From Patescibacteria group bacterium (GTDB taxonomy: Bacteria > Patescibacteriota > Patescibacteriia > PEXW01), in contig JBAZBR010000001.1 of NCBI GenBank assembly GCA_041671325.1, forward strand, positions 327,126 through 391,125: a stretch of DNA of 64,000 nt, in the 5' to 3' direction. A program made the position numbers and the translations under genes. The notes beneath the pieces are model-generated. The model was not told the origin of the DNA, made no database searches, and was given only the letters and a program-made list of their open reading frames with translations. Shown piece after piece: positions 23,601-62,933 of the stretch. How positions within the stretch are numbered: position 1 is the stretch's first letter; each line of letters opens with the position of its first letter.

Positions 23601-24986
23601 ATGAAAATTAAAGCAATATTAAGCCTGAGCTTTTGTTTTAGCGGATTTTTGTTGTTAATTTCAGCAAACGCGGTTTTTGCTGCTTTTAATCCCGGCCGGA
23701 TTATAAGTGATGAAGAGTTTATCGATTCAGGCAGTATGAGCGTTGCCGATGTCCAGAACTTTTTAGCCAGGCGAGGCGGAACTTTGGCAAATAGGCAAAT
23801 TGAAGATTTTAATAAAGTTACTAAACCGGTTAGCGAGGCAATTATTGAAATCGGTAAATTATATAATATTAATCCGAAAGTAATCTTGGTGACTTTACAA
23901 AAAGAATCAAGCCTTTTAACCCATCAGGCTCCATCCCAAAGATTGCTTGATTATGCCATGGGATATGGTTGTCCTGACAGTGGCGGTTGCAGCACAAAAG
24001 CAGCCGGTTTTTACCGGCAAATGGATTTTGCTACTTGGCAATTTAGGCAATATTTTGATTTACCAGGAAATTATTCCTTTAAAGCCGGCGGCACCTATAC
24101 TTTTACGGATTTAAGCGGATCAAAAATTTCAACAGTCATCATTGAAAATCAAGCTACGGCTGGACTGTATAATTACACCCCACATGTTTATAACGGTAAT
24201 TATAATTTTTACACCCTTTATAACCAATGGTTTGCCAAAATTTACCCCGATGGCTCTTTGGTTAGAGTCGGCAAATCACCTGGCATTTGGTTGATCCAAA
24301 ATGGCGAACGTAGAGCAATCCAAACTCGTGCCGCTTTTGTAACTCGTTTTGGCGGTGATTATTCAAAAGTTTTGCCAATAACACAAGATGCTTTGGAAAA
24401 TTATCCTCGCGGAGTAAATATAAGACTGCCAAATTATTCTTTAGTTAGAACCCCAGATATGCAAATTTATTTGTTAAGCGGCGATGAGAAAAGATTGATT
24501 CAATCCCAGGAAATCTTTAAAAATTTAGGGTTTAACCCTGAAGAAGTTGAAGACGTTTCTTTTGAGGATCTGACTGATTATTTAGACGGGATTCAAGTCT
24601 CCAATGCAAGCGCCTACCCAGCTGGTGCTTTAGTGCAGATAAAAGGCAGTGGTGTAGTCTGGATTGAACAAGGCGTATGGTATCCGATTTTAGATAAATC
24701 AATATTAAAATCAAGGTTCCCAAACCGCCGCCCAACCTTGACCATAACCAACGAAGAGTTAAATAAATATTCAAAAGGTCAGCCTTTAAAGCTTAGGGAT
24801 GGTGAATTAGTTCAAGTCAAAGGCGAGGCAGGAATTTCAGTAATTTCTAATGGTTTACGCAGGGGCATACCTTCCCGTGAACTATTGAAACAATTTGGAT
24901 ATAACAAAAAGAATATAATACTTATCAATAGTCGCGTAGCTGAATTGCATCCAGTGGGTGAAAAGTTAAATAATGCTAATTTGTAA
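23601..24986 (+). CDS. Secreted protein with four tandem ~50-aa repeats, possibly cell-wall associated.
   Basis: Signal peptide. The C-terminal half has four repeats sharing G-x-RR-x-I ... F-x-x-G-(Y/F). Confidence 0.6.
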   Translation: MKIKAILSLSFCFSGFLLLISANAVFAAFNPGRIISDEEFIDSGSMSVADVQNFLARRGGTLANRQIEDFNKVTKPVSEAIIEIGKLYNINPKVILVTLQKESSLLTHQAPSQRLLDYAMGYGCPDSGGCSTKAAGFYRQMDFATWQFRQYFDLPGNYSFKAGGTYTFTDLSGSKISTVIIENQATAGLYNYTPHVYNGNYNFYTLYNQWFAKIYPDGSLVRVGKSPGIWLIQNGERRAIQTRAAFVTRFGGDYSKVLPITQDALENYPRGVNIRLPNYSLVRTPDMQIYLLSGDEKRLIQSQEIFKNLGFNPEEVEDVSFEDLTDYLDGIQVSNASAYPAGALVQIKGSGVVWIEQGVWYPILDKSILKSRFPNRRPTLTITNEELNKYSKGQPLKLRDGELVQVKGEAGISVISNGLRRGIPSRELLKQFGYNKKNIILINSRVAELHPVGEKLNNANL

Positions 24987-30566: not shown

Positions 30567-31358
30567 ATGAAAAAAGTATTCGTCTCGGTTATTTTGACTA
30601 TACTAATCGGCATACCTGTCTATGCCCAAACCAATACTACCGTAGATGTGACAAATCCCATAATCTCGAGTGTTTCAGTTAGTAGTATTACTAAAAATAC
30701 CGCTTTAGTAAGCTGGAAAACCAATGAACCAGCCACGAGTTATGTAGATTTCGGCCCAACAGATATTTACGGAAATACTTTTGGATTGGGAGATTATATC
30801 ACCACCCATAGCGTTTCTCTTTCAAGCATGACTGCTGAAACTTTGTACCATTTCAGGATTCGCTCAAAAGATGCGGCTGGGAATGAGGCGGTTAGCACTG
30901 ATACGACTTTTACGACTTTAGCAAGCACAACTAACACAAACTTAAATACAAATACTGCGGTGAACTCTAATACGAACGCAAAAACCAATTTAAATGGCAA
31001 TATCAACACAAATAAGAATTCCAACGCTAACAAGAATACAAATTTAAACGCAAACAAAAACACTAACTTGAACAGCAATAAGAATACAAATTTAAACAGA
31101 AACGTCAATGTTAATACGAACGTTAATGCTAACCTGAATGGTAATACCAATGAAGATGCAAATTTAAATATTAATGAAGATATTACCAATGCCAATCTTG
31201 TTTCTGAGGCTGATTCAAACACAAATTCAAGCGAGGCCGAGACGACTAATGATGGTCGCATAGGCCTGTTATTGATTGTTGGCGGAGTTATTCTCTTGGT
31301 TGTGATTATAATATTTGCCTGGAAAAAATTAAGGCAACCACCAGCATTACGGCCTTAA
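30567..31358 (+). CDS. Surface protein with a signal peptide, FN3-like domain, Asn-rich low-complexity repeat region and C-terminal TM anchor.
   Basis: Signal peptide. FN3-like segment (ISSVSVSSITKNTALVSWKT ... YHFRIRSKDAAGNE). About 80 aa of NTNLN/NKNTNLN repeats. C-terminal hydrophobic helix followed by KKLRQ. Confidence 0.8.
   Translation: MKKVFVSVILTILIGIPVYAQTNTTVDVTNPIISSVSVSSITKNTALVSWKTNEPATSYVDFGPTDIYGNTFGLGDYITTHSVSLSSMTAETLYHFRIRSKDAAGNEAVSTDTTFTTLASTTNTNLNTNTAVNSNTNAKTNLNGNINTNKNSNANKNTNLNANKNTNLNSNKNTNLNRNVNVNTNVNANLNGNTNEDANLNINEDITNANLVSEADSNTNSSEAETTNDGRIGLLLIVGGVILLVVIIIFAWKKLRQPPALRP
30933..31182 (+). repeat. Imperfect tandem DNA repeats (about 24-27 bp units) encoding the Asn-rich region.
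   Basis: Repeated aacaagaatacaaatttaaacgcaaac-like units. Coding, in frame. Confidence 0.7.
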
Positions 31359-32426: not shown

Positions 32427-34844
32427 TTATTTTACTTTTCGGTAAAAAAAGAAATTACCAGTATTTTGGATTAATTTGTAACTTGGATCTTTGGCTAAGT
32501 CCTCAGCTTGTAAATGATTTCTTTGCCATTCCAAAGTACCGGCTTTGGCCATTAAAATGAAAATATAATCAGCTTCCCCTATGCCTTGTGGAAATTGAAA
32601 TAAATATTGCCTATGGGCAAGTTGTGCGCCAACTGTATTGGTTGCAGAAACTTTGGCTTCAAACGGTACATTTTTTATGGCTTCTTTGACAATTGGGGCC
32701 ATAGGCGCTGGCCAATAAACTCGCATATCTTTGGTTTGGGAATAAGGAAGAGGGCTTAAACGGTAAGATTCAATGGCGGTAGTAATTATTAATAATATTA
32801 AGATACACATTTCTAAACTAAATTTAGAATTTTTTTGAATTTTTATTTGCCACCAGGGGCCAATTCTTTTTTTAATGGCGGCAATACCAAAGATTGTTGA
32901 GATGAATATAAATCCGGTTATAGTCGCTTGATAATGGTAATTAAGCAACCTTGGCTCAATCCGGTCATTGAATAAATTTACGGCAAAGTCTGGCCAAGCT
33001 ATGGCTAAAGTTAAAGGACTAGCTACTGGCAAAAATGCTACAGAGCCAAGTAAGCCGGCATAAAGATGGCGGGCTTGGTTGCCTGCCACCATTGATAAAA
33101 CCAACCTTGGATGCGAAAGCAGGTTTTTGGATATTGATTCAGGTTTATTGCCCAAAGTCTGGTATTGGTAGTTATATTTACTGGGTTGCCAATTCCTGGC
33201 CATTGGCATCAACCAAAATAAATTTAGGCTTAAATAAGCAAGCGACAAAATAATTATTGTTATGGCTTTTCGCCATTCTTTCCGTTCGTGCCATAAAATG
33301 AATATGCCGAAGGTTGCCACCATCAAGACCAATTCTTCTTTGCACATTGCCAATAATATTGAAAATAGAATAAATGTTTTCCAGCGTTTTTCAAGATAAG
33401 CAAGCATCATGCCTAATGAAAAAGTTGCTCCAAGGGTTAAAGCATGGAAATCAAACATCAGTGCCCTTTGCAAAGTTGGATAAAATAAATAAGCCAAAGC
33501 TAAAACTGCTGACAGCCATTCATGGCCAAGAATTTTTTTTGCAAGACGGAACACTAGCCAACCACCATAAGCCACAACTAGAACCTGAATGATTAATAGA
33601 ATATAGGGGCTTGAATAAATCCAATACAAAGGGGCAAAGAGCACTAAAATTAGGTCTGCATGATGTATGTACCTTAAAACAACATCTGTCCCATATGGAT
33701 TGGTAAATTGAAAAAACCTGCCCTGGCTGGTGTTCCAGACTACCTGGTCCATATTTCCCAAATCAAAGCGTCCGGTTATAACCTTTGAATGCATTAAGCA
33801 GCCCATAACCGTAAAATAAATTGCAAAAAATAAAATTGCTAAGATTACAACTCCTTTTGGTTTTCGTATAAAATTCCATAACCAAATAACAGGCTTTTTC
33901 AGGTATTTCCAAGCAAAGACTATGACCCAGAAGAATTCGACTAAAGTTAGGCCTAAGCGGGTAAAAGAAGCCACTAGGACCCCTGTAACGCCCAGAGAAG
34001 CCTTTAAAATAGCGGCTACGCTAGCTTCTCTTATTCCAATGCCGCTTGGGGTTATAAAGCTAACGTAGCCTAAAAACCAACCAATCGGCATGGCGGCTAA
34101 TATTAATAAAAACTGGTTTGGATTCAGTTTGAAAAAAGCAAGAGTTAGAAACAAGCCACCGAAGGCGTAAAAAGCCCATCCGACAATTAAGATAGTCAGT
34201 AATTGATAATTTTGAAATATAGAATAAGTAATAATTTCTGCAGGTTTTTTTAGCTTTATAAGTAACCAAGTAATTAGTTTTTTGAATATTTTTGAGAACC
34301 AAAAAATAGCAATAGAACCGATAGCTCCAATTATCACTAAAAGTTTGAACCAATTGGGCAAATCTTTTGCGAATAAACTAAAAATTCCTCCCACAACTAC
34401 TGATGCAGAAAGTAACGAAAGAATTTCCAATAAGGTTGCGTAAAACGATTGGTTTTTTGAAACTCCATATTTTTCACTTTGGCCTATCCGGCCTAAAACA
34501 CTCCAAATATTTCCAGGGACATATCTTGTGAATTCAGAAAGCATGATTATTTCCCCAGACTGTTTAAAACTTATTGAATGTCCAAGATCCCTTAGGATTT
34601 TCTTCCAAGCGTAGATCCTGAAAAAGTAATAAAAACTAAAACCCAAAAAAGCCAAAAATAACCAAAACCAGTTTGGTTTAGTGAAATTTTTTGAAACATC
34701 ATGCCAGTTACCCTGCAAAACTTTTACAAAAAACAAAAGAACAATAATTGATATTGCTAGGGTTAAAGTTCTCCTAATCCTGTTCTTATATTTAAACCAA
34801 AGGTTCATTGCCATTCCATTCGGCCCGAATCGGTAGGTTATCAT
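32427..34844 (-). CDS. Fusion membrane protein: flippase-like (LPG_synthase_TM / UPF0104) N-terminal domain plus DUF2079 GT-C-type glycosyltransferase-like C-terminal domain.
   Basis: N-terminal motifs RYVPGNIWSVLGR and TPSGIGIREASV. C-terminal polytopic region with FDLGNMDQVVWNT. 805 aa, more than 15 predicted TM helices. Confidence 0.7.
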   Translation of the reverse strand: MITYRFGPNGMAMNLWFKYKNRIRRTLTLAISIIVLLFFVKVLQGNWHDVSKNFTKPNWFWLFLAFLGFSFYYFFRIYAWKKILRDLGHSISFKQSGEIIMLSEFTRYVPGNIWSVLGRIGQSEKYGVSKNQSFYATLLEILSLLSASVVVGGIFSLFAKDLPNWFKLLVIIGAIGSIAIFWFSKIFKKLITWLLIKLKKPAEIITYSIFQNYQLLTILIVGWAFYAFGGLFLTLAFFKLNPNQFLLILAAMPIGWFLGYVSFITPSGIGIREASVAAILKASLGVTGVLVASFTRLGLTLVEFFWVIVFAWKYLKKPVIWLWNFIRKPKGVVILAILFFAIYFTVMGCLMHSKVITGRFDLGNMDQVVWNTSQGRFFQFTNPYGTDVVLRYIHHADLILVLFAPLYWIYSSPYILLIIQVLVVAYGGWLVFRLAKKILGHEWLSAVLALAYLFYPTLQRALMFDFHALTLGATFSLGMMLAYLEKRWKTFILFSILLAMCKEELVLMVATFGIFILWHERKEWRKAITIIILSLAYLSLNLFWLMPMARNWQPSKYNYQYQTLGNKPESISKNLLSHPRLVLSMVAGNQARHLYAGLLGSVAFLPVASPLTLAIAWPDFAVNLFNDRIEPRLLNYHYQATITGFIFISTIFGIAAIKKRIGPWWQIKIQKNSKFSLEMCILILLIITTAIESYRLSPLPYSQTKDMRVYWPAPMAPIVKEAIKNVPFEAKVSATNTVGAQLAHRQYLFQFPQGIGEADYIFILMAKAGTLEWQRNHLQAEDLAKDPSYKLIQNTGNFFFYRKVK

Positions 34845-35742
34845 GATCCGAGGACCTGACTAATAATTCAGCTAGTAAGCCGGTAAATACTAATTGAACT
34901 CCAACTAAAGCAATGAAAATTCCAAAAATTAACAATGGCCGAGTACCAATTGATTGGTGAAAAAACAAACGTAATATCGCCAAATAAATTAAAATGATTA
35001 AACCCATAAAACTCAAACTAATTCCCAAACCACCAAAAAGATGCAGGGGCCGACGGTTGTATTTTGTTAAAAACAAAACCGTAATCAGGTCTAACATGCC
35101 CCTCAAATACCTCTTACCCTTATATTTGGTTTCACCGTATTTTCTTGGCCGAGTATGGGTTGGAATCTCAGCAATTTTAAAGCCTTGGCTATTTAAAAGT
35201 ACGGGGATGTAGCGATGCAATTCGCCATATAATTTTAAACTTTTTGCCGCTTCCCGAATATAAATTTTAATAGCGGAATTAAAATCATGAAGTTTTAATC
35301 CGCTTAGTTTTCTAGTTATAAAATTGAAAAATTTTGAAGGTAGGCGCTTTTCCAAATTATCCGGCCGGTCAAATTTCCAACCACTTACCACATCATAACC
35401 TTCAGCCATTTTTTCAAGCATTTTTGGGATTTCATTTGGATCATTCTGTAGATCCGAATCTAGTGTTATGAAAATTTCGCCTTTAGCTTGTTGGAAGGCA
35501 GAATGCAGAGCTGCCGCTTTACCTAGATTTCTTCGATGACAAATTACATGAAGTTTTTTATCCTCCTTGGTTTTTAATTTTAAGTAATCAAAAGATCCAT
35601 CAGTTGATCCGTCATCGACAATGATTATTTCGTATGGAATATTTAAATTTTTACCAGCTTGATGTAGCTCGGAGATTAATTCTGGTAAACTATCTTTTTC
35701 ATTAAAAGCCGGGGCAATAAACGATATGGAGCTTGTCTTCAT
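34792..35742 (-). CDS. GT2 polyprenyl-phosphate sugar synthase (DPM1/ArnC/GtrB-like).
   Basis: IVDDGSTDGS and DSDLQNDP motifs, with two C-terminal TM helices. Confidence 0.85.
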   Translation of the reverse strand: MKTSSISFIAPAFNEKDSLPELISELHQAGKNLNIPYEIIIVDDGSTDGSFDYLKLKTKEDKKLHVICHRRNLGKAAALHSAFQQAKGEIFITLDSDLQNDPNEIPKMLEKMAEGYDVVSGWKFDRPDNLEKRLPSKFFNFITRKLSGLKLHDFNSAIKIYIREAAKSLKLYGELHRYIPVLLNSQGFKIAEIPTHTRPRKYGETKYKGKRYLRGMLDLITVLFLTKYNRRPLHLFGGLGISLSFMGLIILIYLAILRLFFHQSIGTRPLLIFGIFIALVGVQLVFTGLLAELLVRSSDHDNLPIRAEWNGNEPLV

Positions 35743-36340: not shown

Positions 36341-36631
36341 ATGAGTAATATAAATGAACAGATTCTTATTTCGATTAAAAAATGGATCGAGGTTAATAAA
36401 CCAGATGATCGCCATTTTTTAACTCAGACCGGAGCCTTAACCGTTGATCAAATAATGAAACAAATCGAAGAAAAAACGGTTTGGGGGCTAGATTTCGCAA
36501 TGGTTGTTAAATTGAAATACTTGGGTTATGTTGCCCGTCATTCTTTGTCCACAGAGGAAGAGAAGGAGCGAATAATTTATACTTTTGTTGCTGAATCCAT
36601 GAAAAATCTTCAAACGCTTTCTGTTCAATAA
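36341..36631 (+). CDS. Small acidic hypothetical protein (96 aa), monocistronic.
   Basis: Good SD (aaaagaggttttgtATG). Its own terminator follows immediately. No family recognised. Confidence 0.6.
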   Translation: MSNINEQILISIKKWIEVNKPDDRHFLTQTGALTVDQIMKQIEEKTVWGLDFAMVVKLKYLGYVARHSLSTEEEKERIIYTFVAESMKNLQTLSVQ

Positions 36632-36875: not shown

Positions 36876-38534
36876 TTAAAATTTAACGGTTTTACCGAAA
36901 GGTATTGCTGCGCTTTGATCGCTTGGTTGTGGAGGCTGAGGCTTGAAATTTTGGTTTTCCCTACGGTTTTGAGGTTTAAAACGGTTTGGCCGAAAACCTT
37001 GATTTCTTGGTGGTCCAAAATTACGATTTCCCTGAAAATGTTGGGCTACAGGCTGTTTGTTTAATTCAGAAAGTTTGATCGGCGAAACTTCAGATTCATT
37101 AATAACTGGCTCTACGGTAACTTCTGGACTTTGAAAAAGGTCTTTGGGGGGTCGTTTCTTTTTGCCTTCGGTTCGATAAATGGATTCTTCCTTTTCAACT
37201 GCCTGGTTTTCTTCCTCGGCGGAAGCCCGATAAACATCTTCAACCCCACTCCAACGTAAAACTTTTTCTTCAACATCAGCTCGTTTTAATGTATATCGTT
37301 CCCTGGATACGGCAATTACCTTTTCACGATTGTTTGTCGGGATAAGTTCCATCGGCGGTAAAGTGGTGGCGCTGAATGGCTGTGAAGCTACGCCGTCTAT
37401 CATTAATTTCAAATAAACTTCATATTTTGGCAAATTGACCAAATCAACCTGGGTAAAGGTCGGAAAAAATTCTTTTTCTAAAAATTCAGCATCTGCTCCG
37501 CCAACCCGGAAAGCCATAATTGTGCCTACGTTGCCAAAAACTGCAGGGGCAACAGTTTCATCCAGCTGCTCAATGTATTGGTGGGCGATAATTAAATTCA
37601 AGCGGTATTTTCTGGCTTCTGAAAGAATATTGGCAAAACTTTCAGTGGCGAAATTTTGAAATTCATCTACGTACAAGAAAAAATCCGAACGTTCATTTTC
37701 CGGCAAATCCACTCGGCTCATGGCCGCTAATTGTAAACGGGTTATCATCATGGCACCCAATAAAGCCGAATTATCTTCGCCTATCCGGCCTTTAGCCAGA
37801 TTAAAAAGTAAAATTTTATTGCTATCCATTACTTCTCTTAAATCAATCGTACTTTTAGTTTGACCGACGATATTGCGGATAATTGCGCTGGATAAAAATT
37901 GACCGACTTTGTTTTGGATTGGGGCAACAGCTTCATTCCTGAACTTATCGTTATAATTCGCAAATTCATCGACCCAGAAACCTTTTACTATCGGATCGGT
38001 CACTTTAGTTAAGACTCGAGTCCGGTATCGGGCATCAACTAGCATCCTGGCAATGCCAAGCATGGTGGAACCGGGGTATTCCAATAAAGCTAAAATCGTA
38101 TTATTTAATATGTATTCCATCCGGGCGCTCCAGACCCCTTCCCAGATTTTTGTAAAGACACCCATCAAGCCAGAGGCAACTAAATGCCTTTGGGTTTCAT
38201 CAACAGTTTCTAGAACATTAAAACCAATTGGATGCTCAATGTCGGCAGGATTAAAGTAAACAACATCATTAATTCTGTTATTAGGTATGTAATCTAAAAC
38301 TTTTTCAACCAAATCACCGTGCGGATCGACTAGGGCAATTCCGTTGCCTGCATTTAAATCGTTAATTATCATCCGTTCGATTACTGTAGATTTGCCCATA
38401 CCGGTTTTTCCAATCAAATACATATGCCGCCTGCGGTCGTCCGTCTTAATGCCAAAACGCCGGAAATATCCCCGGTAATTGGTTTGGGCAAAAACATTAA
38501 CATCTTTTAAATCGTATGGCATATTATTCGACAA
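36876..38534 (-). CDS. Type IV coupling-protein-like P-loop ATPase (VirD4/TraG/TraD family, TraG-D_C-like), lacking a TM domain.
   Basis: Walker A GKTGMGKST and ALVDPHGDL (DPKGD-like). Walker B LYVDEFQNF, then ARKYRLNLIIAHQYIEQL. Pro/Gln/Asn-rich C-terminal tail. Confidence 0.65.
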   Translation of the reverse strand: MSNNMPYDLKDVNVFAQTNYRGYFRRFGIKTDDRRRHMYLIGKTGMGKSTVIERMIINDLNAGNGIALVDPHGDLVEKVLDYIPNNRINDVVYFNPADIEHPIGFNVLETVDETQRHLVASGLMGVFTKIWEGVWSARMEYILNNTILALLEYPGSTMLGIARMLVDARYRTRVLTKVTDPIVKGFWVDEFANYNDKFRNEAVAPIQNKVGQFLSSAIIRNIVGQTKSTIDLREVMDSNKILLFNLAKGRIGEDNSALLGAMMITRLQLAAMSRVDLPENERSDFFLYVDEFQNFATESFANILSEARKYRLNLIIAHQYIEQLDETVAPAVFGNVGTIMAFRVGGADAEFLEKEFFPTFTQVDLVNLPKYEVYLKLMIDGVASQPFSATTLPPMELIPTNNREKVIAVSRERYTLKRADVEEKVLRWSGVEDVYRASAEEENQAVEKEESIYRTEGKKKRPPKDLFQSPEVTVEPVINESEVSPIKLSELNKQPVAQHFQGNRNFGPPRNQGFRPNRFKPQNRRENQNFKPQPPQPSDQSAAIPFGKTVKF

Positions 38535-40083
38535 AAGGCAGGTTGACGGGCACTTCTGGTTCTTTTATTTCAGGTTGTTGGATTGAAGTTTGAGGTTGAG
38601 CCGGAAATTGCTGTTGAGGTGCTGTATACATTGGTTGTTTAGGCAGGGCCATGGGTGGGCTGGCTTTTGGGTGCATAGAAACTGAGTGAACTTTTTGGAT
38701 AGGCAGAGGACTTTCAAAAGGCAGGGATGAGGGTGCGCCAGAACGTTTAGTTTCGGTCTTTTGAACTTGTCCGGCTTTTACATCAATGGTTGGGGGGTGG
38801 AATATAGTCGCTAGTTCTTCAACATTCAAGTACATTGGAGTACGTCCGCGCCATATTGACCTAGATCTATAATTGTTTAAATTCCTTTTCTTTCTCAAAA
38901 TCAGCCTTCTTTCTTTGAAAAAGACGATATCGCTGGTTTTTGTAAATTTATTGAATGTAAACAAATTACAATCTTGCAGGGTAAATTGTTTCAAGGCACC
39001 GACTACGCCATTAACACCCCTGGCCTTGCTAAATGGTTTAATGCCGTCTGGCCCAGGGGTTTTCTTGCCCCAATAAATAAATCTCCCTTTCACTTTAAAT
39101 GCCACTTTGGTCAATTTCATTTGGACTTGGGTGACGGTATCTCTTTCCCCCGGTGATAAATGAAGCATTAAGGTCGGTGGCTCTTCCCTTTTAAATTTTT
39201 CCTGTTCATGACTAATTGGGATCAAAGAGGCAGTAAGTGATTCACGTACTCCTTTGACTACATTCGCGGGAATTTCAAAAGGATTACCGGAACTTTTTCC
39301 TTTTCTGCCAATTAGTTTATTAACAATATTTTTTGCTTGCTCGCGCCATTCGGCGGGATAATCCACTGTCTCTTGTTGCAAAACCCATTGGAGCCAAATT
39401 TGTTCATCCGGGCTGATGCGGTTCATTATTTCTAAAAGCGCAGCCATCGGGTCTATTAATTTTTGACTCATGCTGTGCTCAAATAACGGATAAGTCCGAA
39501 TAGGATAACAGCTCGGCATAAGAAGTTGAATTTGGGCAGACCAGCAATCCCATTCCTCATGTGGTATTTCGGCTGGCTTGGGCATTAAATCAACATAATC
39601 TTCTACTTCAGTAATTTCCGCATCTGGGTATTGGGCGTAAACTGCAGACTCGATAATTTCCCGATGAACTATTAGACATCTCACAAAGAATTGGACATAA
39701 CCGCCCAGACTGACGACTTCAACTGACATGCTGGGTGGGACAAAACCATAACCAAAAAATTCAGTAAATGGTAAGCCCCATTTTTCAGGGAATATGGGAG
39801 CTTTTGAAATACCATTAAAATGGGCGAACATCTGCTCAGCGGCTTTCGGGGTTTGTTCACTGTCTTTAGGTACATCAATGGCCAAAAGCACGTACCTGCC
39901 TGCATAGTATTTATTTATGTACCGCCTGGTAACAAAATCCCACCAAACATATTTTAAACCAACTATAAAGGTTATGACGACTGCAATCCAGCCTCCATTC
40001 TGAAAGAGAAACCACATCATTAAAATTGGGTTGGCTGATGAAGTTCGGAAAGCTTCAGCCATGCCTGAAAGATCTATTATCAT
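38524..40083 (-). CDS. Membrane-anchored hypothetical protein (519 aa). Candidate membrane partner of the ATPase.
   Basis: N-terminal hydrophobic hairpin (ILMMWFLFQNGGWIAVVITFIVGL) and a large soluble region without known motifs. Pro/Gln-rich C-terminus. It overlaps the ATPase gene by 11 nt. Confidence 0.6.
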   Translation of the reverse strand: MIIDLSGMAEAFRTSSANPILMMWFLFQNGGWIAVVITFIVGLKYVWWDFVTRRYINKYYAGRYVLLAIDVPKDSEQTPKAAEQMFAHFNGISKAPIFPEKWGLPFTEFFGYGFVPPSMSVEVVSLGGYVQFFVRCLIVHREIIESAVYAQYPDAEITEVEDYVDLMPKPAEIPHEEWDCWSAQIQLLMPSCYPIRTYPLFEHSMSQKLIDPMAALLEIMNRISPDEQIWLQWVLQQETVDYPAEWREQAKNIVNKLIGRKGKSSGNPFEIPANVVKGVRESLTASLIPISHEQEKFKREEPPTLMLHLSPGERDTVTQVQMKLTKVAFKVKGRFIYWGKKTPGPDGIKPFSKARGVNGVVGALKQFTLQDCNLFTFNKFTKTSDIVFFKERRLILRKKRNLNNYRSRSIWRGRTPMYLNVEELATIFHPPTIDVKAGQVQKTETKRSGAPSSLPFESPLPIQKVHSVSMHPKASPPMALPKQPMYTAPQQQFPAQPQTSIQQPEIKEPEVPVNLPFVE

Positions 40084-40089
40084 GTTGGT

Positions 40090-41232
40090 TTAATTGGGAT
40101 TTGCTTTTTCAAGTAAAATATATTCACCTGATGGAAGTTTTGTAAATTTACTGTGATTTGTTAAAGCTAATTGAATAGTATTTTTTTTCACCATCCGCTG
40201 CTTTAAAACTTCTTCAACTAATTCATCTCTTTTCATTGACCGTCCTGATTTTTTTAAAACCTCGGCCAAAATATCAGCAACAACGCCTGGCTTATATCCC
40301 CATTCTTTTAAGGCATATATTCCCCTACCGACTAAAACATACCGGCTGTTTAAAATCAGTTCATTATGCACAGTTGGTGGATAAGCAACCCGATGATCAA
40401 ACTTTGTTTGATTTATAAGTTTGGTAATTTCGTTAAAATGCAAAGGTTTATTAGCTTTCTTTAAAATCAGATATATTTTGTCATTCATCCTTTTTGGAAT
40501 TATAGAACCCCATCCGACCAGGCCATATTCATTATATGGATTTTTTGCAATTTGCTTGCTTATATCAATATAAGATAAAATAGCCTCATCACTTAATTGG
40601 AACCTGTGTTCCTCGCCAAATTTTGTTTTTCTAATTTTTTCTATTAATTCCGAAACTTTTAAAGGTTTGCTTTCTGCTTGTAAAATTTCTTCAGCTTGAG
40701 TTATGGTCTCAGTCACTAAATGAATGGGTGCAGTTTTTAATTGCCATGCAGTATGAAAATTTTCATTAATAACGAAATTCTTTAGTTTATCTGTTAATAT
40801 AAAACGCATGACAAATAAAGTTGCGGATTTAGCCGATTGTTGGTCTTCCTTGATATCCAAAATTTGGCTTAGGAAATTTTCTTCCTTAATGATTCCCCCA
40901 TGATTATTGATTACATTAATAATTGCATCAGCCAAATGTTGGACTTGATTGGCGGTTTGAGTGAATTTTTTTATTTTTGAAATTGCCCCGGACTCAATTT
41001 GCCGGATTCTCTCTCTGGTCACTTTATAAATTTCACCGATTTGTTCAAGGGTTTCAGCTGGTTTTCCGTGCAGACCATAGCGACGACGTAAAACATCTTC
41101 TTCTCTTGAAGATAAGCTTTTTAGCAAATTCGAAATCACTTCAACAGGGTTGAAATGCTCAATTTCTTGATTTTGTTTCTGGTTTAAAACTCTGTCCAGA
41201 ATTGAACCTGTATTAGAAATCGGTCCACTCAT
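40090..41232 (-). CDS. DNA-binding protein with N-terminal sigma-70 region-4-like HTH and C-terminal HARE-HTH (RNAP delta-like) domain.
   Basis: REEDVLRRRYGL ... TLEQIGEIYKVTRERIRQIESGAISKIKK has the sigma region 4 pattern. The C-terminus PLHFNEITKLI ... YVLVGRGIYALKEWGY matches the HARE-HTH of RpoE/delta. Confidence 0.6.
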   Translation of the reverse strand: MSGPISNTGSILDRVLNQKQNQEIEHFNPVEVISNLLKSLSSREEDVLRRRYGLHGKPAETLEQIGEIYKVTRERIRQIESGAISKIKKFTQTANQVQHLADAIINVINNHGGIIKEENFLSQILDIKEDQQSAKSATLFVMRFILTDKLKNFVINENFHTAWQLKTAPIHLVTETITQAEEILQAESKPLKVSELIEKIRKTKFGEEHRFQLSDEAILSYIDISKQIAKNPYNEYGLVGWGSIIPKRMNDKIYLILKKANKPLHFNEITKLINQTKFDHRVAYPPTVHNELILNSRYVLVGRGIYALKEWGYKPGVVADILAEVLKKSGRSMKRDELVEEVLKQRMVKKNTIQLALTNHSKFTKLPSGEYILLEKANPN

Positions 41233-41348
41233 AAGGCTAAATATTAATAACTTGTATTAATATAGCACTTTATTGTTATACTGTCAAGTTTTTATTATAA
41301 AACAAAATTTAACCTTACTTGAAGTTCAAGCTTTATAATATATTAGTC

Positions 41349-42251
41349 TTAATTTTTTTTCTTTTGCCTGAAATTGTTCCAAGTAACCAATATTGGAGAA
41401 GCTACAAAGATTGATGAATATGTACCTGAAGCAATGCCTATAAGCAATGCTAAAACAAAGTTCCTGATTGTATTGCCTCCGAATAACACTAAAGCAAATA
41501 AAATTAACAGAGCCGTCATGGAAGTATTTATTGATCTGACCATAGTTTGGTTCATGCTCTCATTGACCACTTCTTCATAAGTTTTGCCAGTTGAGGAAAT
41601 TAATCTTTCCCGAATTCTATCGTAAACAACAATCGTATCATGCACTGAAAAACCTAAAATTGTAAGCAAAGCAGTAACGAATAGGGTGTCAATTTCTATG
41701 CCAAAAAAATGCCCGAAGATTGAAAAAATACCTATGACCATAATCATATCGTGAACCAAAGCGATAATGGCACTGACGCCATATATCCAAGAAGGAACAG
41801 GACCTACAGACACTTTTCTGAATGCCCAAGTAATGTATAAAATAATCAAAATTAAAACTATGGCCATTGCGGTTATGGATTTTCTTTTCAACTCGGAGCC
41901 GATGGTTGGGCCGATTGTTTCAAAACTGTTTTCAGTTATTTTTTCATCAAATTTTTTCAAGTTGCTTAATATTTTTTCTTTTTGTGCATTGGTTATTGGT
42001 TCTAATCTCAGGCTTAAACCTTTTTCACCAGTCAATTGAATGCTGACATTTTTTACTTCCGCAACTTTTACAGCCTCGGTAATTTGCTGGGTTGAGGGAA
42101 CATTTTTTGAAAATTCCAAGCGCATTAATGATCCTCCGGTGAAATCAATGCCAAATTTAAAACCCCAAATAAACATTGAAAGAATTCCTGGAATCAATAA
42201 CAACAATGATAAGGTGTAATAATATTTCCTTTTCTGGATAATTGCGTACAT
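41349..42251 (-). CDS. secF: Protein translocase subunit SecF.
   Basis: 300 aa with six TM helices and SecF-like sequence throughout. It directly follows secD. Confidence 0.88.
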   Translation of the reverse strand: MYAIIQKRKYYYTLSLLLLIPGILSMFIWGFKFGIDFTGGSLMRLEFSKNVPSTQQITEAVKVAEVKNVSIQLTGEKGLSLRLEPITNAQKEKILSNLKKFDEKITENSFETIGPTIGSELKRKSITAMAIVLILIILYITWAFRKVSVGPVPSWIYGVSAIIALVHDMIMVIGIFSIFGHFFGIEIDTLFVTALLTILGFSVHDTIVVYDRIRERLISSTGKTYEEVVNESMNQTMVRSINTSMTALLILFALVLFGGNTIRNFVLALLIGIASGTYSSIFVASPILVTWNNFRQKKKN

Positions 42252-42255
42252 AATT

Positions 42256-43950
42256 TTATTCTTTAGATTTTTGCGGGTCTCTTAAGCCAAACCATTTTGG
42301 GTTTTTAACCCAATTAAATGTGGTTACCAACCTCAAGAGCATCCGGGTAACCGTGATTGCGGAAAATAAACTGACCACGATACCAATCAACAAGGTTATG
42401 GCAAAACCCTTGACAATACTTGAACCAAACCAAACTAAAATAAGCGAAGTGATTATGCTTGAAACATTTGAATCGCGAATTGACAGCCAAGCGCGTTTAA
42501 AGCCTTCTTCAATAGCAATTTCCAACGGCCGGCCGTTGTGCAGCTCTTCTTTGGTTCTTTCAAAAATTAAAATATTGGCGTCTAAAGCAATGCCTATTGA
42601 AAGGATAAACCCGGCTATGCCCGCTAAAGTCAAAGTAACCGGCCAAAGTTTGAAAATCGCCACAACTATTAGGGTGTATAAAACCAGAGCTAAAGAGGCT
42701 AATAATCCAGGTAGCCGATAAAAAACTATCATGAAAATAGCAACTACGATGATACCTAATAAGCCGGCAAAAATACTTCTAGCAATTGAATCATTACCCA
42801 GGGTTGCCCCGACAGTTTGTTGGCTAATCAAGTTAACTGGAACCGGTAAGGCCCCGGCGTTTAGTCTTTTCGCTAAATCTTTCGCCTCTTTTAAAGTGAA
42901 ACTTCCGCTTATGACTGCTTCTCCGCCTGTAATTTCTTGATTAACCGTAGGATTACTGATAATTTGGCCGTCTAAAAAAATTGCCACGTTTTTGCCAATA
43001 TTTCTTTTGGTTATTTCTGCAAAAAGTTTTGTACCTTCGCTATTAAAACTTAAACTGACTTCAGGTTCACCGGTTGACTGGTTAAAAGCCACGCCGGCCC
43101 TTTGTAATTGTTTTCCTGAAAGCCCAGTATCTTTAAAGGCTATTTGGGTTTGGTCATTCGCAATAGTAAATAAAATATGCGCTCCTCTAACTTCTAAAAT
43201 ATCTTTTCCATCTTCCTGAATAGTTTTATCTTCAATTCTTTTAATGATATGGTAGCCGAATTCAGTTTTGACCAATTTTGGGTAAACTTGATCGTTTTTT
43301 AATTCATCAAAAAGAACTTTTTCGAATTCGGCGACAAAAGTGCCTTTTTTGGCAAAACCTAAATCCCCACCCTTTTGTTTTCCTGCTGAATCAGCATTGC
43401 TCGGATCTTGGGAATATTCATTAGCTAAAGCTGAAAAATCAGCATTTTTTACTAAAGCTTTTTTCAAAACTTCTTCTGCCTGTTTTTTAGTTGCCGCCTC
43501 TGCATCTATCTGAGCTTTTTTTTGAGCCTCAGTTTGGGTTTGATTTTGGTCAACTTCCTTAAATTCTAAAATTGGCGTATCGCCAATCATTTTAATTGCC
43601 TGGTCAATGTCTTTAATCCCGGCTAATTCAACAATTATCCGCCAACTATTTCCAGATTTACTGGTTTGAACCACTGGCTCAGAAACCCCAAAAGCGTTAA
43701 CTCGTCTTTCAATGACATCCCTAACGCTTTCCAAGGCTTGGGCTTGGTCACCGCTAACGATATTTTTTGTGTCAGCTTCGTAAATTAAAGATGAACCGCC
43801 TTGCAAGTCTAAGCCGAGCCGAAGGTCAAATTGTTTGCCAAATATTTTAATATTTGGAAGCAAATTTTTTGGTAAAGCAATATAGCTAACTACCAAACCA
43901 AGCACGATTATTAGCGAAAAATTAAGCCAAAGTTTTTTTCTAGAAGTCAT
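42256..43950 (-). CDS. secD: Protein translocase subunit SecD.
   Basis: N-terminal TM helix, large periplasmic domain and a C-terminal six-TM bundle. Paired with secF. Confidence 0.88.
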   Translation of the reverse strand: MTSRKKLWLNFSLIIVLGLVVSYIALPKNLLPNIKIFGKQFDLRLGLDLQGGSSLIYEADTKNIVSGDQAQALESVRDVIERRVNAFGVSEPVVQTSKSGNSWRIIVELAGIKDIDQAIKMIGDTPILEFKEVDQNQTQTEAQKKAQIDAEAATKKQAEEVLKKALVKNADFSALANEYSQDPSNADSAGKQKGGDLGFAKKGTFVAEFEKVLFDELKNDQVYPKLVKTEFGYHIIKRIEDKTIQEDGKDILEVRGAHILFTIANDQTQIAFKDTGLSGKQLQRAGVAFNQSTGEPEVSLSFNSEGTKLFAEITKRNIGKNVAIFLDGQIISNPTVNQEITGGEAVISGSFTLKEAKDLAKRLNAGALPVPVNLISQQTVGATLGNDSIARSIFAGLLGIIVVAIFMIVFYRLPGLLASLALVLYTLIVVAIFKLWPVTLTLAGIAGFILSIGIALDANILIFERTKEELHNGRPLEIAIEEGFKRAWLSIRDSNVSSIITSLILVWFGSSIVKGFAITLLIGIVVSLFSAITVTRMLLRLVTTFNWVKNPKWFGLRDPQKSKE

Positions 43951-52076: not shown

Positions 52077-53078
52077 TTGCTTTTACAATCTTTTATCCAG
52101 CAAATCTGGTTGTGGACTTGGGAACATCCCTGGATTTTAGTCTTAGTCGGCATACTGATTGGCTTTTTATTCAGTACTATATTTTTGGCGGCCAGAAGTA
52201 AAGCTATCAATCGTTATATCCGGCTGGTTCGAACTTCAACTATTGAGGAATTCGAATCAAGGATTTTTGGCGTAAGGGTTCTTTGCCGTAAAGTTTTCCC
52301 GAGCACTAGAAACCTAAATGCCTTGAATGTCCCTCCGCCAGCTTTAAACTCAGGGAACGCTTCAAATTCAACCGCCCAAATCTTGATTAGCCAGCCAAAC
52401 GAACAGATATACTATCTGCCGAATAAGGCCGGTATTGCTACTGGACTTGCTTTTCCGCCGTTTGTGAAAATCGTGCACGGCAACCCGCCAATTCTGGAAA
52501 TGACCCAGATTTTGCCGGTTGATATCATTCCAGCTCCAGCAAACGGCGTCTGGATCCCCGGCCGCGTTGGTTCCAATAACATCAGTTTAACTATGGAGGG
52601 ATTGCGGACCAAAAAATTCTGGAAAGGCAGCAGGAATTTCTACATCCTGGATTTTTTTGAAAAAAACGACTGTCTTGGTTTTATCCAACCAATTGAGAAA
52701 AAATCCCAGCCAATTCCGGTCCTGGCTCCTGCCAGTGGCTACATCCTCCAGTTCGGTGCTTTGGAACGAACACCGATTGTTGCTGGCGCCAGCGTAATGC
52801 TTGTTGCCAAGTTGGAAACCCACCGAATTTTGTCTGAGAACGTCGGGACTTTCTTCGATTCAGTAGATAGCAAGCTTTACGCTGAACTTGGTAAAACTGT
52901 TCGAGCCGGGGAAATTCTGGGTGTGATTAAATACCTGGGGAAATTAAATCCCCTGGTGCATAAAGTAATTGCGCCTTGCGACTTGATCTTGTTAAGGTCA
53001 TTTGCCCATGCCCAAAACCCGGAAGATGGCGCTCCAGTTGGTTTCAATAGTAAGTTATTTACTTTTCAGGCTCTTTAG
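52077..53078 (+). CDS. Membrane-anchored hypothetical protein, possibly a degenerate LytM (M23-like, non-catalytic) domain protein. GC-rich.
   Basis: N-terminal TM helix. The C-terminal half has the M23-like pattern PVLAPASGYILQFG ... VRAGEILGVIKYLG without the HxxxD/HxH residues. GC is markedly higher than the flanks. Opposite strand to the flanking dcw genes. Confidence 0.55.
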   Translation: MLLQSFIQQIWLWTWEHPWILVLVGILIGFLFSTIFLAARSKAINRYIRLVRTSTIEEFESRIFGVRVLCRKVFPSTRNLNALNVPPPALNSGNASNSTAQILISQPNEQIYYLPNKAGIATGLAFPPFVKIVHGNPPILEMTQILPVDIIPAPANGVWIPGRVGSNNISLTMEGLRTKKFWKGSRNFYILDFFEKNDCLGFIQPIEKKSQPIPVLAPASGYILQFGALERTPIVAGASVMLVAKLETHRILSENVGTFFDSVDSKLYAELGKTVRAGEILGVIKYLGKLNPLVHKVIAPCDLILLRSFAHAQNPEDGAPVGFNSKLFTFQAL

Positions 53079-55509: not shown

Positions 55510-56603
55510 GATCGTATTTGCTTAGTGACATTCAATAATACTCCAATGGAGCCAAGTGAAACAATTAAAGCACTGCCGCCATTGGAGATAAAGGGCAAAG
55601 GGATTCCGGTCAACGGCAAAATGCCTGTTAAAGCGCCGATATTAACAAATGCTTGAGCTGTAATCCAAATAACCACTCCCATAATAATTAACCTTCCTCC
55701 TGGATCCGAAATTTTTTTTGCTAGTTTTCTGCCCCTGATATAAATAGCAGTGTATAAAAAAACAATGCCCAAAACGACAATAAAACCCAATTCTTCAGCA
55801 GCTACTGCAAATATTGAATCCCCCGCTGCTTCGGGCAAGTAATTGAATTTTTGGATTGATTTTCCTAAGCCTCTGCCAAACCAACCGCCTGAACCAATAG
55901 CTAAAAGCGAACGATTTATATGATAGCTAGAATCTTGGGAGTCTTGCTGTGGATTCAGAAAAGTAGTCAGTCGTTCGGCTCGATATGGCTCAAATTTTAT
56001 TAATAGCAAGATAACTAAAATTATGCCAACCAAAATCCAAAGCAGATGTTTTACGGGTGCGCCAGCTATAAAATACATTGCCGTGGCAATTATAAAAATT
56101 ATAAGGGTTGTACCCAAATCTCTTTGTAACATAAGCATCAAAGCGCAGCCAGCAATCAGTATTGAGAAAGGTACAAGGGTTTTTTTATAATCACGCCAAT
56201 TATTTTGGATTTTTGGCAGCCAGGCGGCTAAATAAATTATCATGCCGATTTTCAAAACTTCTGAGGGTTGGAAAAAAAAGCCCCCGATACTTATCCAGCG
56301 CTTTGCACCCAGGAGTTCTTTCCCAATTCCAGGTACGAAAGGCAAAAATAAAATTAAAATTGATAGTATCAATAAAATGTTTGACCATTTAATCCAATGA
56401 CGATAATCAATCATTTGGGCAAAATACAAAATAGCAAAACCAATTATTAAAGGCAGTATCTGCTTAATTAACATGCTATTAGGGTCTCCAAGGGTTCGAA
56501 ATGATTCAGCCGTACTGGCAGAAGAAAAAATTATCACTCCAATTACGCAAAGAGTGATAATTATGGCTAAAAAAATTGAATCTGGCCTTCGGTATGAAAT
56601 CAT
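55506..56603 (-). CDS. ftsW: SEDS family peptidoglycan polymerase (FtsW/RodA).
   Basis: 365 aa with 10 TM helices, in the dcw position between murD and murG. Confidence 0.85.
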   Translation of the reverse strand: MISYRRPDSIFLAIIITLCVIGVIIFSSASTAESFRTLGDPNSMLIKQILPLIIGFAILYFAQMIDYRHWIKWSNILLILSILILFLPFVPGIGKELLGAKRWISIGGFFFQPSEVLKIGMIIYLAAWLPKIQNNWRDYKKTLVPFSILIAGCALMLMLQRDLGTTLIIFIIATAMYFIAGAPVKHLLWILVGIILVILLLIKFEPYRAERLTTFLNPQQDSQDSSYHINRSLLAIGSGGWFGRGLGKSIQKFNYLPEAAGDSIFAVAAEELGFIVVLGIVFLYTAIYIRGRKLAKKISDPGGRLIIMGVVIWITAQAFVNIGALTGILPLTGIPLPFISNGGSALIVSLGSIGVLLNVTKQIRS

Positions 56604-62901: not shown

Positions 62902-62933
62902 TTCATCATGCTTGCCTTAGAAAATAAAATCCA

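Follow-up and report, generated by a model that had tools for sequence, protein, structure and literature searches.

Two adjacent genes, B and C, probably encode an ATPase in two pieces that belongs to the type IV coupling protein (T4CP) lineage and is tethered to the membrane; the pair would be chromosomal, vertically inherited and widespread in Patescibacteria (probability about 0.55).

B and C lie behind a third gene, A, in the window, by which the whole analysed stretch of 64,000 nucleotides is meant (Table 1). The ORF coordinates agree with the three tightly packed minus-strand ORFs described in the initial annotation. The 6-bp spacing between A and B stands as reported there, and the 11-bp overlap between B and C applies only if C begins at TTG. 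From the alternative start, an ATG at 38522, C has 548 aa and begins after a gap of 1 nt past the stop codon of B. This ATG is the choice of public gene callers and is the likely start of C. The B and C genes are translationally coupled or overlapping. One promoter-like site upstream of A matches 11 of 12 hexamer positions and is the top-scoring site of the region, and the total number of such sites in the region was not above shuffle expectation. By its sequence, this site is only suggestive as a candidate promoter of the operon.

Table 1. Features of the locus and its upstream flank, in positions of the window.
Feature	Position	Strand	Description
secD-secF	41349..43950	-	directly upstream, same strand; conserved genomic context
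Promoter-like site	41259..41287	-	TTGACA, 17-nt spacer, TATATT, extended -10 TG; in 116-bp secF-A spacer
Gene A	40090..41232	-	380 aa; accessory operon member
A sigma region 4 (residues 36-89)	40966..41127	-	Sigma70_r4 match
A two HARE-HTH / RNAP-delta-like winged-helix domains (residues 248-380)	40093..40491	-	Pfam, NCBIfam
Gene B	38524..40083	-	519-aa DUF8128-family membrane protein
B N-terminal membrane anchor (residues 19-52)	39928..40029	-	short hydrophobic helix, invariant NGGW, long transmembrane helix
B alpha/beta domain (residues about 61-440)	38764..39903	-	predicted VirB4 N-terminal-domain fold (model)
B disordered P/Q-rich tail (residues 441-519)	38527..38763	-	ends in conserved PPxNLP[FIV]
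Gene C	36876..38534	-	552 aa counted from TTG; T4CP (TrwB/VirD4)-like ATPase
C Walker A GKTGMGKS (residues 42-49)	38388..38411	-	invariant
C Walker B YVDEFQ (residues 288-293)	37656..37673	-	invariant; then SEARKYR and AHQ
C variable P/Q/N/R-rich tail (residues about 431-552)	36879..37244	-	low-complexity with conserved islands

C showed Pfam matches to TrwB_AAD_bind (6.7e-12), T4SS-DNA_transf (1.5e-7), TraG-D_C (7e-6) and DUF87 (4e-7), all four above the gathering score, and no Pfam match to FtsK_SpoIIIE, AAA_10 or CagE_TrbE_VirB. The hydrophobicity of the sequence revealed no hydrophobic or transmembrane segment, so the original description of C as a T4CP-like protein without a transmembrane domain is retained. 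The Walker A, Walker B, ARKYR and AHQ motifs were invariant across 15 orthologues. Among PDB sequences, the only relatives at significant E-value were the T4CPs TrwB and DotL. VirB4, FtsK and HerA did not match at E <= 1 in these sequences, and TrwK was present in the set yet unmatched. By hhalign, C aligned with TrwB over 265 columns at 93.5% probability (E 2.3e-7), starting at Walker A and passing through the region holding the all-alpha domain of TrwB to Walker B, and the Walker B and AHQ parts of C fell on the Walker B and AGLQ regions of TrwB. This alignment suggests an all-alpha domain in C; the structure model of C had a pLDDT of 47.6. C also aligned over 292 columns with TrsK, the T4CP of pGO1 that lacks a transmembrane domain. 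The top NCBIfam match of C was the CD1115 VirD4-like family, which is the name of TrsK in the pGO1 record (47.5 bits, far under the 250 cut-off). Against TrwK/VirB4 the alignment covered the P-loop only (E 0.028), and against TrsE/VirB4 of pGO1 it covered 100 columns around Walker B (E 1.4e-5). Judged by these matches, C is T4CP-like and not VirB4-like, and its motifs are those of a catalytically intact P-loop ATPase.

Low-complexity tails rich in P and Q, and in C also in N, end both B and C, as was first noted. In C, the tail contains conserved islands, one ISLxEAL-like and another, PGQV[IV]KF-like, at its end; some orthologues have a treble-clef zinc finger inserted here, which is annotated in two. 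Of the 35 C tails that could be measured, 32 were net basic and 20 had at least two CxxC motifs, the treble-clef zinc finger pattern. Of 81 proteins, 67 carry the PPxNLP[FIV] motif of B at their very C-terminal end.

B had been described as a transmembrane hairpin followed by a long stretch of no recognisable motif. It belongs to Pfam DUF8128; beyond the anchor, nothing was above threshold in the local Pfam and NCBIfam copies. Residues 19-52 are its sole hydrophobic stretch, and the AlphaFold model has a short helix at 19-28 and a single long helix at 32-60. Thus the N-terminal membrane anchor was confirmed, and the two-span hairpin was not established. Because the stretch after the anchor is rich in basic residues, the large domain is probably cytoplasmic. 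The model is of medium confidence (mean pLDDT 63.8, core 70-90), and its top 8 Foldseek matches were all TrwK, the VirB4 ATPase of R388. No P-loop ATPases were among the structural matches, which points to the N-terminal rather than the C-terminal domain of VirB4. At about 380 aa, the B domain is as large as the N-terminal domain of TrwK, which spans residues 15-400 (PMC9259494). The domain is therefore predicted to have the VirB4 N-terminal-domain fold, and B is no longer a protein without recognisable features. By hhalign, B did not match TrwK, TrsD, TrsE or TrsJ.

The likeness of B to VirB4 raises the possibility that B and C are a split, highly diverged VirB4 paralogue working in assembly, such as pilus or channel biogenesis, and not in coupling. 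The alignment of C with TrsE would fit this, and split or partial VirB4 N-terminal domains are known from TrsD and CedB/CedD. However, the alignments of C with T4CPs span its entire core, including the stretch where TrwB has its all-alpha domain, and C carries neither of the VirB4-type Pfam domains, so that this explanation is improbable.

For A, the described order of a sigma region 4 followed by HARE-HTH was supported by Pfam matches to Sigma70_r4 (residues 36-89, E 2e-13) and HARE-HTH (E 4.8e-11). The TIGR04567 score of 45.5 bits passed the cut-off of 42. Region 4 of A aligned with that of SigA/RpoD at E about 1e-13, and its 4.2 recognition helix, VTRERIRQIE, has the same sequence as in primary sigma factors. 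No match to sigma region 2 was found in A, which rules it out as a sigma factor, and the lack of an acidic C-terminal tail rules it out as a canonical RNAP delta subunit. A thus shares HARE-HTH, at the TIGR04567 cut-off, with the delta subunit (RpoE) and the recognition helix with primary sigma-70 factors, but unlike either it is a multi-winged-helix fusion. NCBI names it 'sigma factor-like HTH DNA-binding protein'. A is probably an accessory DNA-binding protein, acting as a regulator at -35-like sites or else as a DNA adaptor.

Conservation of gene order was assessed in 80 related loci, with evaluable loci as denominators. C directly followed B in 65 of 77 loci and was apart from it in about 12, with B-C gaps mostly between -14 and +100 bp. 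A stood just before B in 44 of 73 loci and was missing from whole lineages, so of the trio first proposed only the B-C part is regularly kept. secF was upstream in 47 of 71 loci. The median identity of C across lineages was 65%, versus 48% for SecF. The B-C pair also occurs in a Doudnabacteria MAG, as well as in a different genomic context, and no viral contigs with the family were found. Rather than being the isolated minimal module first suggested, the genes are embedded in a conserved chromosomal block, secA/secD-secF-(A)-B-C-mnmA. These results indicate that B and C are the functional core pair and A is accessory, and that many ultrasmall Patescibacteria keep B-C as a vertically inherited housekeeping operon of the chromosome. 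The initial annotation had named a HerA/FtsK-type ATPase, or neighbours that are not co-conserved, as findings that would count against it; instead, C matches T4CPs and B and C are co-conserved neighbours.

The window comes from a Patescibacteria (CPR) MAG. Of its 55 ORFs of at least 150 aa, 43 were scanned, including every ORF of at least 297 aa. No relaxase, VirB4 or mobile-element genes were found among them, consistent with the earlier view that this is not a canonical conjugative locus, and all the family-matching ones were housekeeping genes. No adaptor or chaperone genes were found near B-C, and the GC profile had no clear compositional step at the locus. The PilB gene noted 22 kb away is present as a partial PilB/GspE-type ATPase running off the window end (about 62.9-64.0 kb), and no link to the three genes was found. 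The absence of relaxase, VirB4 and other T4SS genes nearby would suit an integrated conjugative element in decay, or a chance neighbourhood. Both are very improbable: no ORF of the three is disrupted, the catalytic motifs do not vary, housekeeping genes flank the locus, and fortuitous adjacency of B and C is already contradicted by the conserved neighbourhood in many lineages.

T4CPs that lack a transmembrane domain but have a membrane-anchor partner form an established class (PMC7431656), in which TraI anchors TraJ (PMC7431656, PMC13037476). In the Gram-positive MPF-FATA systems TraJ/TraI (pIP501) and TrsK/TrsJ (pGO1), as in B-C, the gene of the membrane protein is immediately upstream of, and overlaps or abuts, that of the soluble T4CP. 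Their anchors are small: the protein encoded just upstream of TrsK has 154 aa, versus 519 aa for B, and B has a VirB4-like model and no similarity to that protein. Unlike pIP501 and pGO1, the B-C locus is chromosomal and housekeeping and has no tra operon or relaxase. Like TrwB/VirD4 of R388 and the Ti plasmid, C has a nucleotide-binding domain with both Walker motifs, and its alignment crosses the region where TrwB has its all-alpha domain. Unlike these proteins, C lacks the N-terminal transmembrane domain, its long, disordered and basic tail ends in a motif of its own, and it is unlinked to relaxase or mating-pair-formation genes.

The three N-terminal helices of B, the last one transmembrane, recall VirB3, and with a VirB4-like fold of similar size they recall VirB3-VirB4 (TrwM-TrwK), where the partner is a related hexameric ATPase, as C probably is. 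In contrast to VirB3-VirB4, the ATPase half is of T4CP type and has a polypeptide of its own, and the sequence of B shows no detectable similarity to either VirB3 or VirB4. EccE of the mycobacterial ESX (type VII) system also has N-terminal membrane helices and a cytoplasmic alpha/beta domain, and shares a complex with the FtsK-like ATPase EccC. It belongs to a different system, scored much weaker than VirB4 against B, and lacks sequence similarity to B. The VirB4 N-terminal domain is also spread over separate proteins in CedB/CedD (PMC11868833) and TrsD (PMC12102498). TrsD, from pGO1 and Patescibacteria T4SS clusters, and CedB/CedD, from the crenarchaeal DNA importer, have the same fold or parts of it and, as is proposed for B, work with FtsK/HerA-superfamily ATPases (PMC12102498, PMC11868833). 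However, TrsD accompanies a bona fide VirB4 and has no detectable similarity to B. In CedB and CedD, HerA/VirB4-type ATPase domains are part of the same proteins, whereas B has none and its proposed partner is T4CP-type. Given the role of TraI for TraJ and that of VirB3 together with the VirB4 N-terminal domain for the VirB4 motor, B and C look like a split VirB3-VirB4 with a coupling-protein-type motor half.

In such an arrangement, the anchor would hold B in the membrane and its large domain would face the cytoplasm, where B would recruit and organise a C hexamer. C would spend ATP to feed substrate into a membrane channel, which may be the patescibacterial T4SS, encoded at another locus, or a different conduit. 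A nucleic acid or nucleoprotein complex is the most likely substrate, because of the family precedent, the basic and often zinc-finger tails of C and the frequent DNA-binding neighbour A.

Two other roles were considered. Patescibacterial T4SSs mostly lack relaxases and are thought to be repurposed (PMC12102498), so B-C might be the substrate receptor of a chromosomal T4SS that delivers protein effectors, not DNA, into host bacteria. T4CPs like DotL, which C matches, recruit protein effectors, and the short conserved C-terminal motifs of B and C resemble protein-docking peptides. This role is unlikely, since T4CP genes are seldom near virB4, adaptor and chaperone genes are absent nearby and neighbour A is a DNA-binding protein. 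Moreover, in Ca. Southlakia epibionticum the T4CP homologue is dispensable for epibiotic growth while the T4SS is essential (PMC12102498).

Somewhat less doubtful, though still a minority reading, is an autonomous membrane-associated DNA pump independent of any T4SS, either for FtsK-like chromosome handling at division or for taking up scavenged DNA together with ComEC and type IV pili. T4CP homologues occur in 2,918 and VirB4 in 2,417 of 3,035 genomes, and the former are rarely near virB4 (PMC12102498). The extreme conservation of C within a housekeeping block, its basic, CxxC-containing tails and the archaeal Ced importer ATPases with VirB4-N-terminal-domain-like parts (PMC11868833) also fit a pump. 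Against it, C has no FtsK_SpoIIIE signal, no channel partner was identified and the VirB4-like fold of B hints at T4SS-type docking. Competence in Ca. Southlakia epibionticum, the one manipulated species, is ComEC-dependent and non-essential (PMC12857230). With the T4CP homologue dispensable and competence ComEC-dependent, neither an obligatory T4SS coupling role nor a DNA-uptake motor role is supported in this species.

The membrane-tethered, T4CP-lineage pair remains the preferred reading. Although the module was first described as possibly new, anchor-paired T4CPs and the distance of T4CP homologues from virB4 had been published. The latter survey counted 5,713 T4CP homologues in these 2,918 Patescibacteria genomes, mostly distant from virB4 (PMC12102498). 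B is a candidate dedicated partner for the many unexplained "orphan" coupling proteins of Patescibacteria.

Genes A, B and C encode a protein with sigma-70 region 4 and HARE-HTH domains (A), a membrane protein putatively of the DUF8128 family (B) and an ATPase resembling type IV coupling proteins (T4CPs) (C). The three minus-strand ORFs described in the initial annotation are all present, with the positions and lengths listed below. The 6-bp gap given there for A and B was confirmed, and the 11-bp overlap of B and C exists only when C starts at TTG. The alternative ATG at 38522, one nucleotide past the B stop codon, gives a product of 548 aa and no overlap, and it is the start chosen by public gene callers. 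Whichever start of C applies, the three genes are tightly coupled. The top sigma-70-type promoter match of the region (TTGACA, a 17-nt spacer, TATATT and an upstream TG) lies in the 116 bp that separate secF from A. The next gene after C is 1.1 kb downstream, past convergent small ORFs, so A-B-C can be one transcription unit, into which readthrough from secDF may occur.

Features of the locus and its surroundings (window positions; C' paralogues are listed by related locus, L plus number, in other genomes)
Feature	Position	Strand	Description
Gene A	40090-41232	-	ORF, 380 aa
Gene B	38524-40083	-	ORF, 519 aa
Gene C	36876-38534	-	ORF, 552 aa from TTG start
SecD	42256-43950	-	PpiC/parvulin-type PPIase domain (residues 143-240) inside the extracytoplasmic P1 region
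Cu-oxidase_4/Mur ligase fusion	56600-58714	-	704 aa; Cu-oxidase_4 (PF02578; residues 34-237) and MurD-like Mur ligase (260-676)
LPG_synthase_TM/DUF2079 fusion	32427-34844	-	805 aa; LPG_synthase_TM domain and DUF2079 membrane domain
GT2 glycosyltransferase	34792-35742		upstream of the LPG_synthase_TM/DUF2079 gene
MreB, first	3691-4704	+	full length
MreB, second	9613-10677	+	full length; followed by MreC and PBP2
PilB/GspE-type ATPase	~62900-64000	+	partial, runs off window end; Walker A GPTGSGKTT
ORF	23601-24986	+	461 aa; no Pfam match
ORF	52077-53078	+	333 aa; no Pfam match
ORF	30567-31358	+	263 aa; no Pfam match
ORF	36341-36631	+	96 aa; no Pfam match; just downstream of C
C' in L062	8259-9704
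C' in L071	4332-5711
C' in L030	3-1124
C' in L026	3-692

The window comes from a 618-kb contig in a Patescibacteria MAG. Of the 55 window ORFs with 150 aa or more, 43 were scanned for families, including all ORFs of at least 297 aa. The scanned ORFs that matched a family are all housekeeping genes, for example those of SecA, SecD, SecF, Mur ligases, MurG, MurB, FtsW, PBP2, MreB, MreC, aminoacyl-tRNA synthetases and MnmA. The 43 scanned ORFs of the 64-kb window include no gene for VirB4 or a relaxase and no mobile-element gene, in agreement with the initial annotation, which had noted neither relaxase nor VirB4 beside the trio. The PilB gene it placed at the window edge is present as a partial ATPase, and no link between this gene and the trio was found. 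Neither Rfam families nor tRNAs were found in the window. A distance of 5 kb separates the two MreB paralogues. The PpiC/parvulin-type insert also occurs in SecD of L082, L083 and L087, and the SecD of the Doudnabacteria locus L085 (424 aa) is without it. The GT2 and LPG_synthase_TM/DUF2079 genes separate C from mnmA here, and in L085 C adjoins mnmA. The 96-aa ORF is not conserved across 80 related loci.

A scan with a B profile, using one genome per species, gave at least 578 loci, and the best 80 were analysed. They are named Kerfeld-, Buchanan-, Uhr-, Magasanik-, Falkow-, Kuenen- and Komeilibacteria, together with the Parcubacteria group. C lies directly downstream of B on the same strand in 65 of the 77 evaluable loci, with gaps mostly of -14 to +100 bp, and secF lies upstream of A or of B in 47/71. 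This conserved neighbourhood shows that the B-C adjacency is not fortuitous. A was found directly upstream of B in just 44 of 73 evaluable loci; A is thus an accessory member, and the trio proposed initially as one unit is reduced to a conserved pair. The gene order in the Doudnabacteria MAG is secA-secD-secF-A-B-C-mnmA. In another lineage the pair B-C stands by itself in other genomic surroundings, and the tail of C there contains a treble-clef zinc finger. Relative to the window proteins, C has a median identity of 65%, followed by SecF (48%), A (41%) and B (36%). A viral or mobile origin was rejected on the basis of the housekeeping flanks and of 2.9 million viral contigs, in which no relatives of B were found. 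A defence system was also considered; PADLOC returned only generic ATPases (mad8, HerA) and, through sigma region 4, MzaA, and there is no defence context, so this reading was rejected. The B-C module, unlike plasmid-borne T4CPs, is vertically inherited and under strong constraint.

C was initially described as a coupling ATPase, and the profile searches bear this out. The Pfam models TrwB_AAD_bind (45.4 bits versus a cut-off of 20.5), T4SS-DNA_transf (31.1 bits, cut-off 20.1) and TraG-D_C (26.4 bits, cut-off 22) all matched above their thresholds. FtsK/SpoIIIE and HerA are not the best match for C; the DUF87/HerA score was below those of the T4CP models, there was no Pfam match to FtsK_SpoIIIE, and PADLOC HerA matched only partial stretches. 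Among all PDB sequences, TrwB and DotL were the only ones to give a significant E-value, with either a single sequence or a 15-sequence profile. In hhalign, C aligned with TrwB, the coupling protein of R388, at 93.5% probability (E 2.3e-7, 265 columns) across Walker A, the TrwB all-alpha region, Walker B and the AGLQ motif, versus 1.8% (E 0.028, P-loop alone) for TrwK, the VirB4 of R388. Among pGO1 proteins, C aligned over 292 columns with TrsK, a T4CP without a transmembrane domain (TMD), and over 100 columns around Walker B only (E 1.4e-5) with TrsE, a VirB4. Judged by sequence, C is closer to T4CPs than to VirB4, FtsK and HerA, with the TrsE match as a caveat. The best NCBIfam match was the CD1115 VirD4-like family, of which C falls short at equivalog level (47.5 bits versus a cut-off of 250).

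Walker A and Walker B of C are about 240 residues apart, and this stretch aligns with TrwB 118-393, which includes the TrwB all-alpha domain. The AlphaFold model of C, made with 15 orthologues, is helical between the two motifs at low confidence (pLDDT 47.6). Walker A, Walker B, SEARKYR and AHQ are invariant in C, and a hydrophobic-window scan found no hydrophobic segment or N-terminal TMD, as the initial annotation had stated. Taken together, the T4CP profile matches, the invariant motifs and the lack of a hydrophobic segment indicate that C is a catalytically intact T4CP-type ATPase without TMD, which is a recognised exception class (PMC7431656). Of 35 C tails that could be measured, 32 are net basic and 20 carry at least two CxxC motifs, which is the treble-clef zinc-finger pattern; in two orthologues this finger is annotated by Pfam. 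Some relatives also encode C', a T4CP-like paralogue that lacks the tail and shares about 40% identity with C; its gene immediately follows C or is found at another site among housekeeping genes. No T4SS genes were found beside C' in the relatives' loci checked. C' is consistent with a 2025 survey in which 96% of genomes had T4CP homologues, about two in each and almost none close to virB4 (PMC12102498), and hetero-oligomers of C and C' are a possibility.

Over 1,700 homologues of B are found in a database clustered at 90%, and at 50% identity the family forms about 3,000 clusters. The named homologues are all from Patescibacteria, and we take the few records labelled Gammaproteobacteria or Binatia, which are third-party MAG labels, as mis-assignments. 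Homologues at 40-45% identity carry precomputed PF26449 (DUF8128), and B is a putative member of this family by homology (E about 1e-110); no match is recorded for the window protein itself. No papers on DUF8128 or PF26449 were found in the literature searched. In the family alignment, the hydrophobic N-terminal segment contains an invariant NGGW, several acidic and aromatic motifs are likewise invariant, and the disordered tail has the terminal motif PPxNLP[FIV], which is at the extreme C-terminus in 67/81 proteins. In the AlphaFold model (mean pLDDT 63.8, core 70-90), N-terminal helices at residues 5-15, 19-28 and 32-60 are followed by an alpha/beta domain of about 380 residues. The transmembrane hairpin proposed initially is therefore retained only as an N-terminal membrane anchor, since helix 32-60 alone is long enough to span the membrane. 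A basic stretch directly follows this helix, which suggests that the large domain is cytoplasmic.

When the B model was searched with Foldseek, the top eight matches were exclusively TrwK chains (E 6e-6 to 3e-4). There were no P-loop ATPases among the matches and B itself has no P-loop, so the match was provisionally assigned to the VirB4 N-terminal domain, and the modelled fold is best described as VirB4/TrwK N-terminal-domain-like. In TrwK this domain comprises residues 15-400 and is wrapped by VirB3, which has three helices, two of them transmembrane (PMC9259494). At the sequence level, Pfam CagE_TrbE_VirB had no match in B, hhalign of B with TrsD and TrsE of pGO1 and TrwK of R388 gave a probability of at most 2%, no similarity was detected to the protein encoded upstream of TrsK, and the B profile matched no PDB sequence even at E 10. 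Because of these negative profile comparisons, B is described by its fold and not as a member of the VirB4, TrsD or TrsK-upstream families, and the case for homology to VirB4 is a structural one. The initial annotation had recognised no motif in B; this holds for a sequence link to VirB4 or TrsD, but not for the DUF8128 homologues and the VirB4-like model. In the Magasanikbacteria-type loci L046, L054, L066 and L080, B is not followed by C and its tail ends in ...KFG, which is unlike the usual PPxNLP and resembles PGQV[IV]KF, the terminal motif of C. The short terminal motifs of B and C may serve interchangeably as peptides that dock a third partner.

The initial annotation had assigned A an N-terminal sigma region 4 HTH and a C-terminal HARE-HTH, and both were located. 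Residues 36-89 match Sigma70_r4 (Pfam), with a recognition helix, VTRERIRQIE, identical to that of primary sigma factors, and residues 248-380 form two HARE-HTH/RNAP-delta-like winged helices (TIGR04567, 45.5 bits, cut-off 42). Sigma70_r4 was the sole sigma match in Pfam, with no region 2, and NCBIfam sigma models scored far under their cut-offs with only the C-terminal model ends matched. The last 90 residues are K/L-rich and the chain ends within a winged-helix domain, with no acidic C-terminal tail. Lacking region 2, A is not a sigma-70 family sigma factor, and lacking the acidic tail it is not a canonical RNAP delta subunit (RpoE) despite its HARE-HTH. Its many homologues carry the NCBI name 'sigma factor-like helix-turn-helix DNA-binding protein'. 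The tail of F-plasmid TraD docks TraM. Docking of A by PGQV[IV]KF of C was considered and is unsupported, since the motif is equally present in loci without A.

These data suggest a model in which B would enter the membrane by its N-terminal helices, and its cytoplasmic VirB4-like domain would recruit and organise a C hexamer there. TraI is proposed to do the same for TraJ, the TMD-less T4CP of pIP501 (PMC7431656, PMC13037476), and VirB3 and the VirB4 N-terminal domain do so for the VirB4 motor (PMC9259494). Given these parallels, B and C together would resemble a split VirB3-VirB4 with a motor of the coupling-protein type. As in TraJ/TraI and TrsK/TrsJ, the gene of the membrane protein immediately precedes that of the soluble T4CP and is coupled to it, but B is unrelated to and much larger than the protein encoded upstream of TrsK. 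In VirB4 the N-terminal domain is joined to its own ATPase, whereas B has no P-loop and the ATPase is a separate T4CP-type gene. VirB4 N-terminal-domain pieces on separate proteins are known from TrsD and from CedB/CedD of the crenarchaeal DNA importer (PMC12102498, PMC11868833). The T4CP family precedent, the basic CxxC-bearing C tails and the DNA-binding neighbour A weakly favour nucleic acid or nucleoprotein as substrate.

On whether such ATPases dock to a T4SS or work alone, the published data cut both ways. T4CP homologues were found in 2,918/3,035 genomes versus 2,417 with VirB4, only 148 of 5,713 T4CP homologues are near virB4, and in Ca. Southlakia epibionticum the T4CP homologue is dispensable and the T4SS essential (PMC12102498); competence of this organism requires ComEC (PMC12857230). 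We give a probability of about one in four to the reading that B-C acts autonomously as a vertically inherited core machine of Patescibacteria, in which a coupling-type motor works outside conjugation on a VirB3/VirB4-N-terminal-domain-like platform supplied in trans.

Abundant orphan T4CP homologues in Patescibacteria are already known, as are TMD-less T4CPs able to pair with a membrane anchor, and the 2025 survey suggested exaptation for these T4CPs and went no further (PMC12102498). The literature searched yielded no dedicated DUF8128 partner of a T4CP, no VirB4 N-terminal-domain-like fold of a DUF8128 model, no pairing of such a fold with a T4CP-type instead of a VirB4-type motor, and no conserved secDF-linked chromosomal operon of B-C. 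A large part of bacterial diversity belongs to the Patescibacteria, whose way of life relies on envelope machines. The present analysis defines a testable two-component system, one T4CP with a dedicated, co-conserved DUF8128 partner, modelled with a VirB4 N-terminal-domain-like fold, in a conserved housekeeping block beside secDF; it offers the first functional hypothesis for DUF8128 and a putative new arrangement in the modular evolution of VirB4/VirD4 ATPases. If the autonomous machine exists, its architecture would be one not recognised before that links the VirB4 and VirD4 lineages, with a VirB4 N-terminal module either older than the VirB4/VirD4 split or exchanged between them. It would have a role outside conjugation, for example in nucleic-acid trafficking supporting the host-dependent lifestyle, and would explain why T4CP homologues are near-universal in the phylum and far from T4SS genes.
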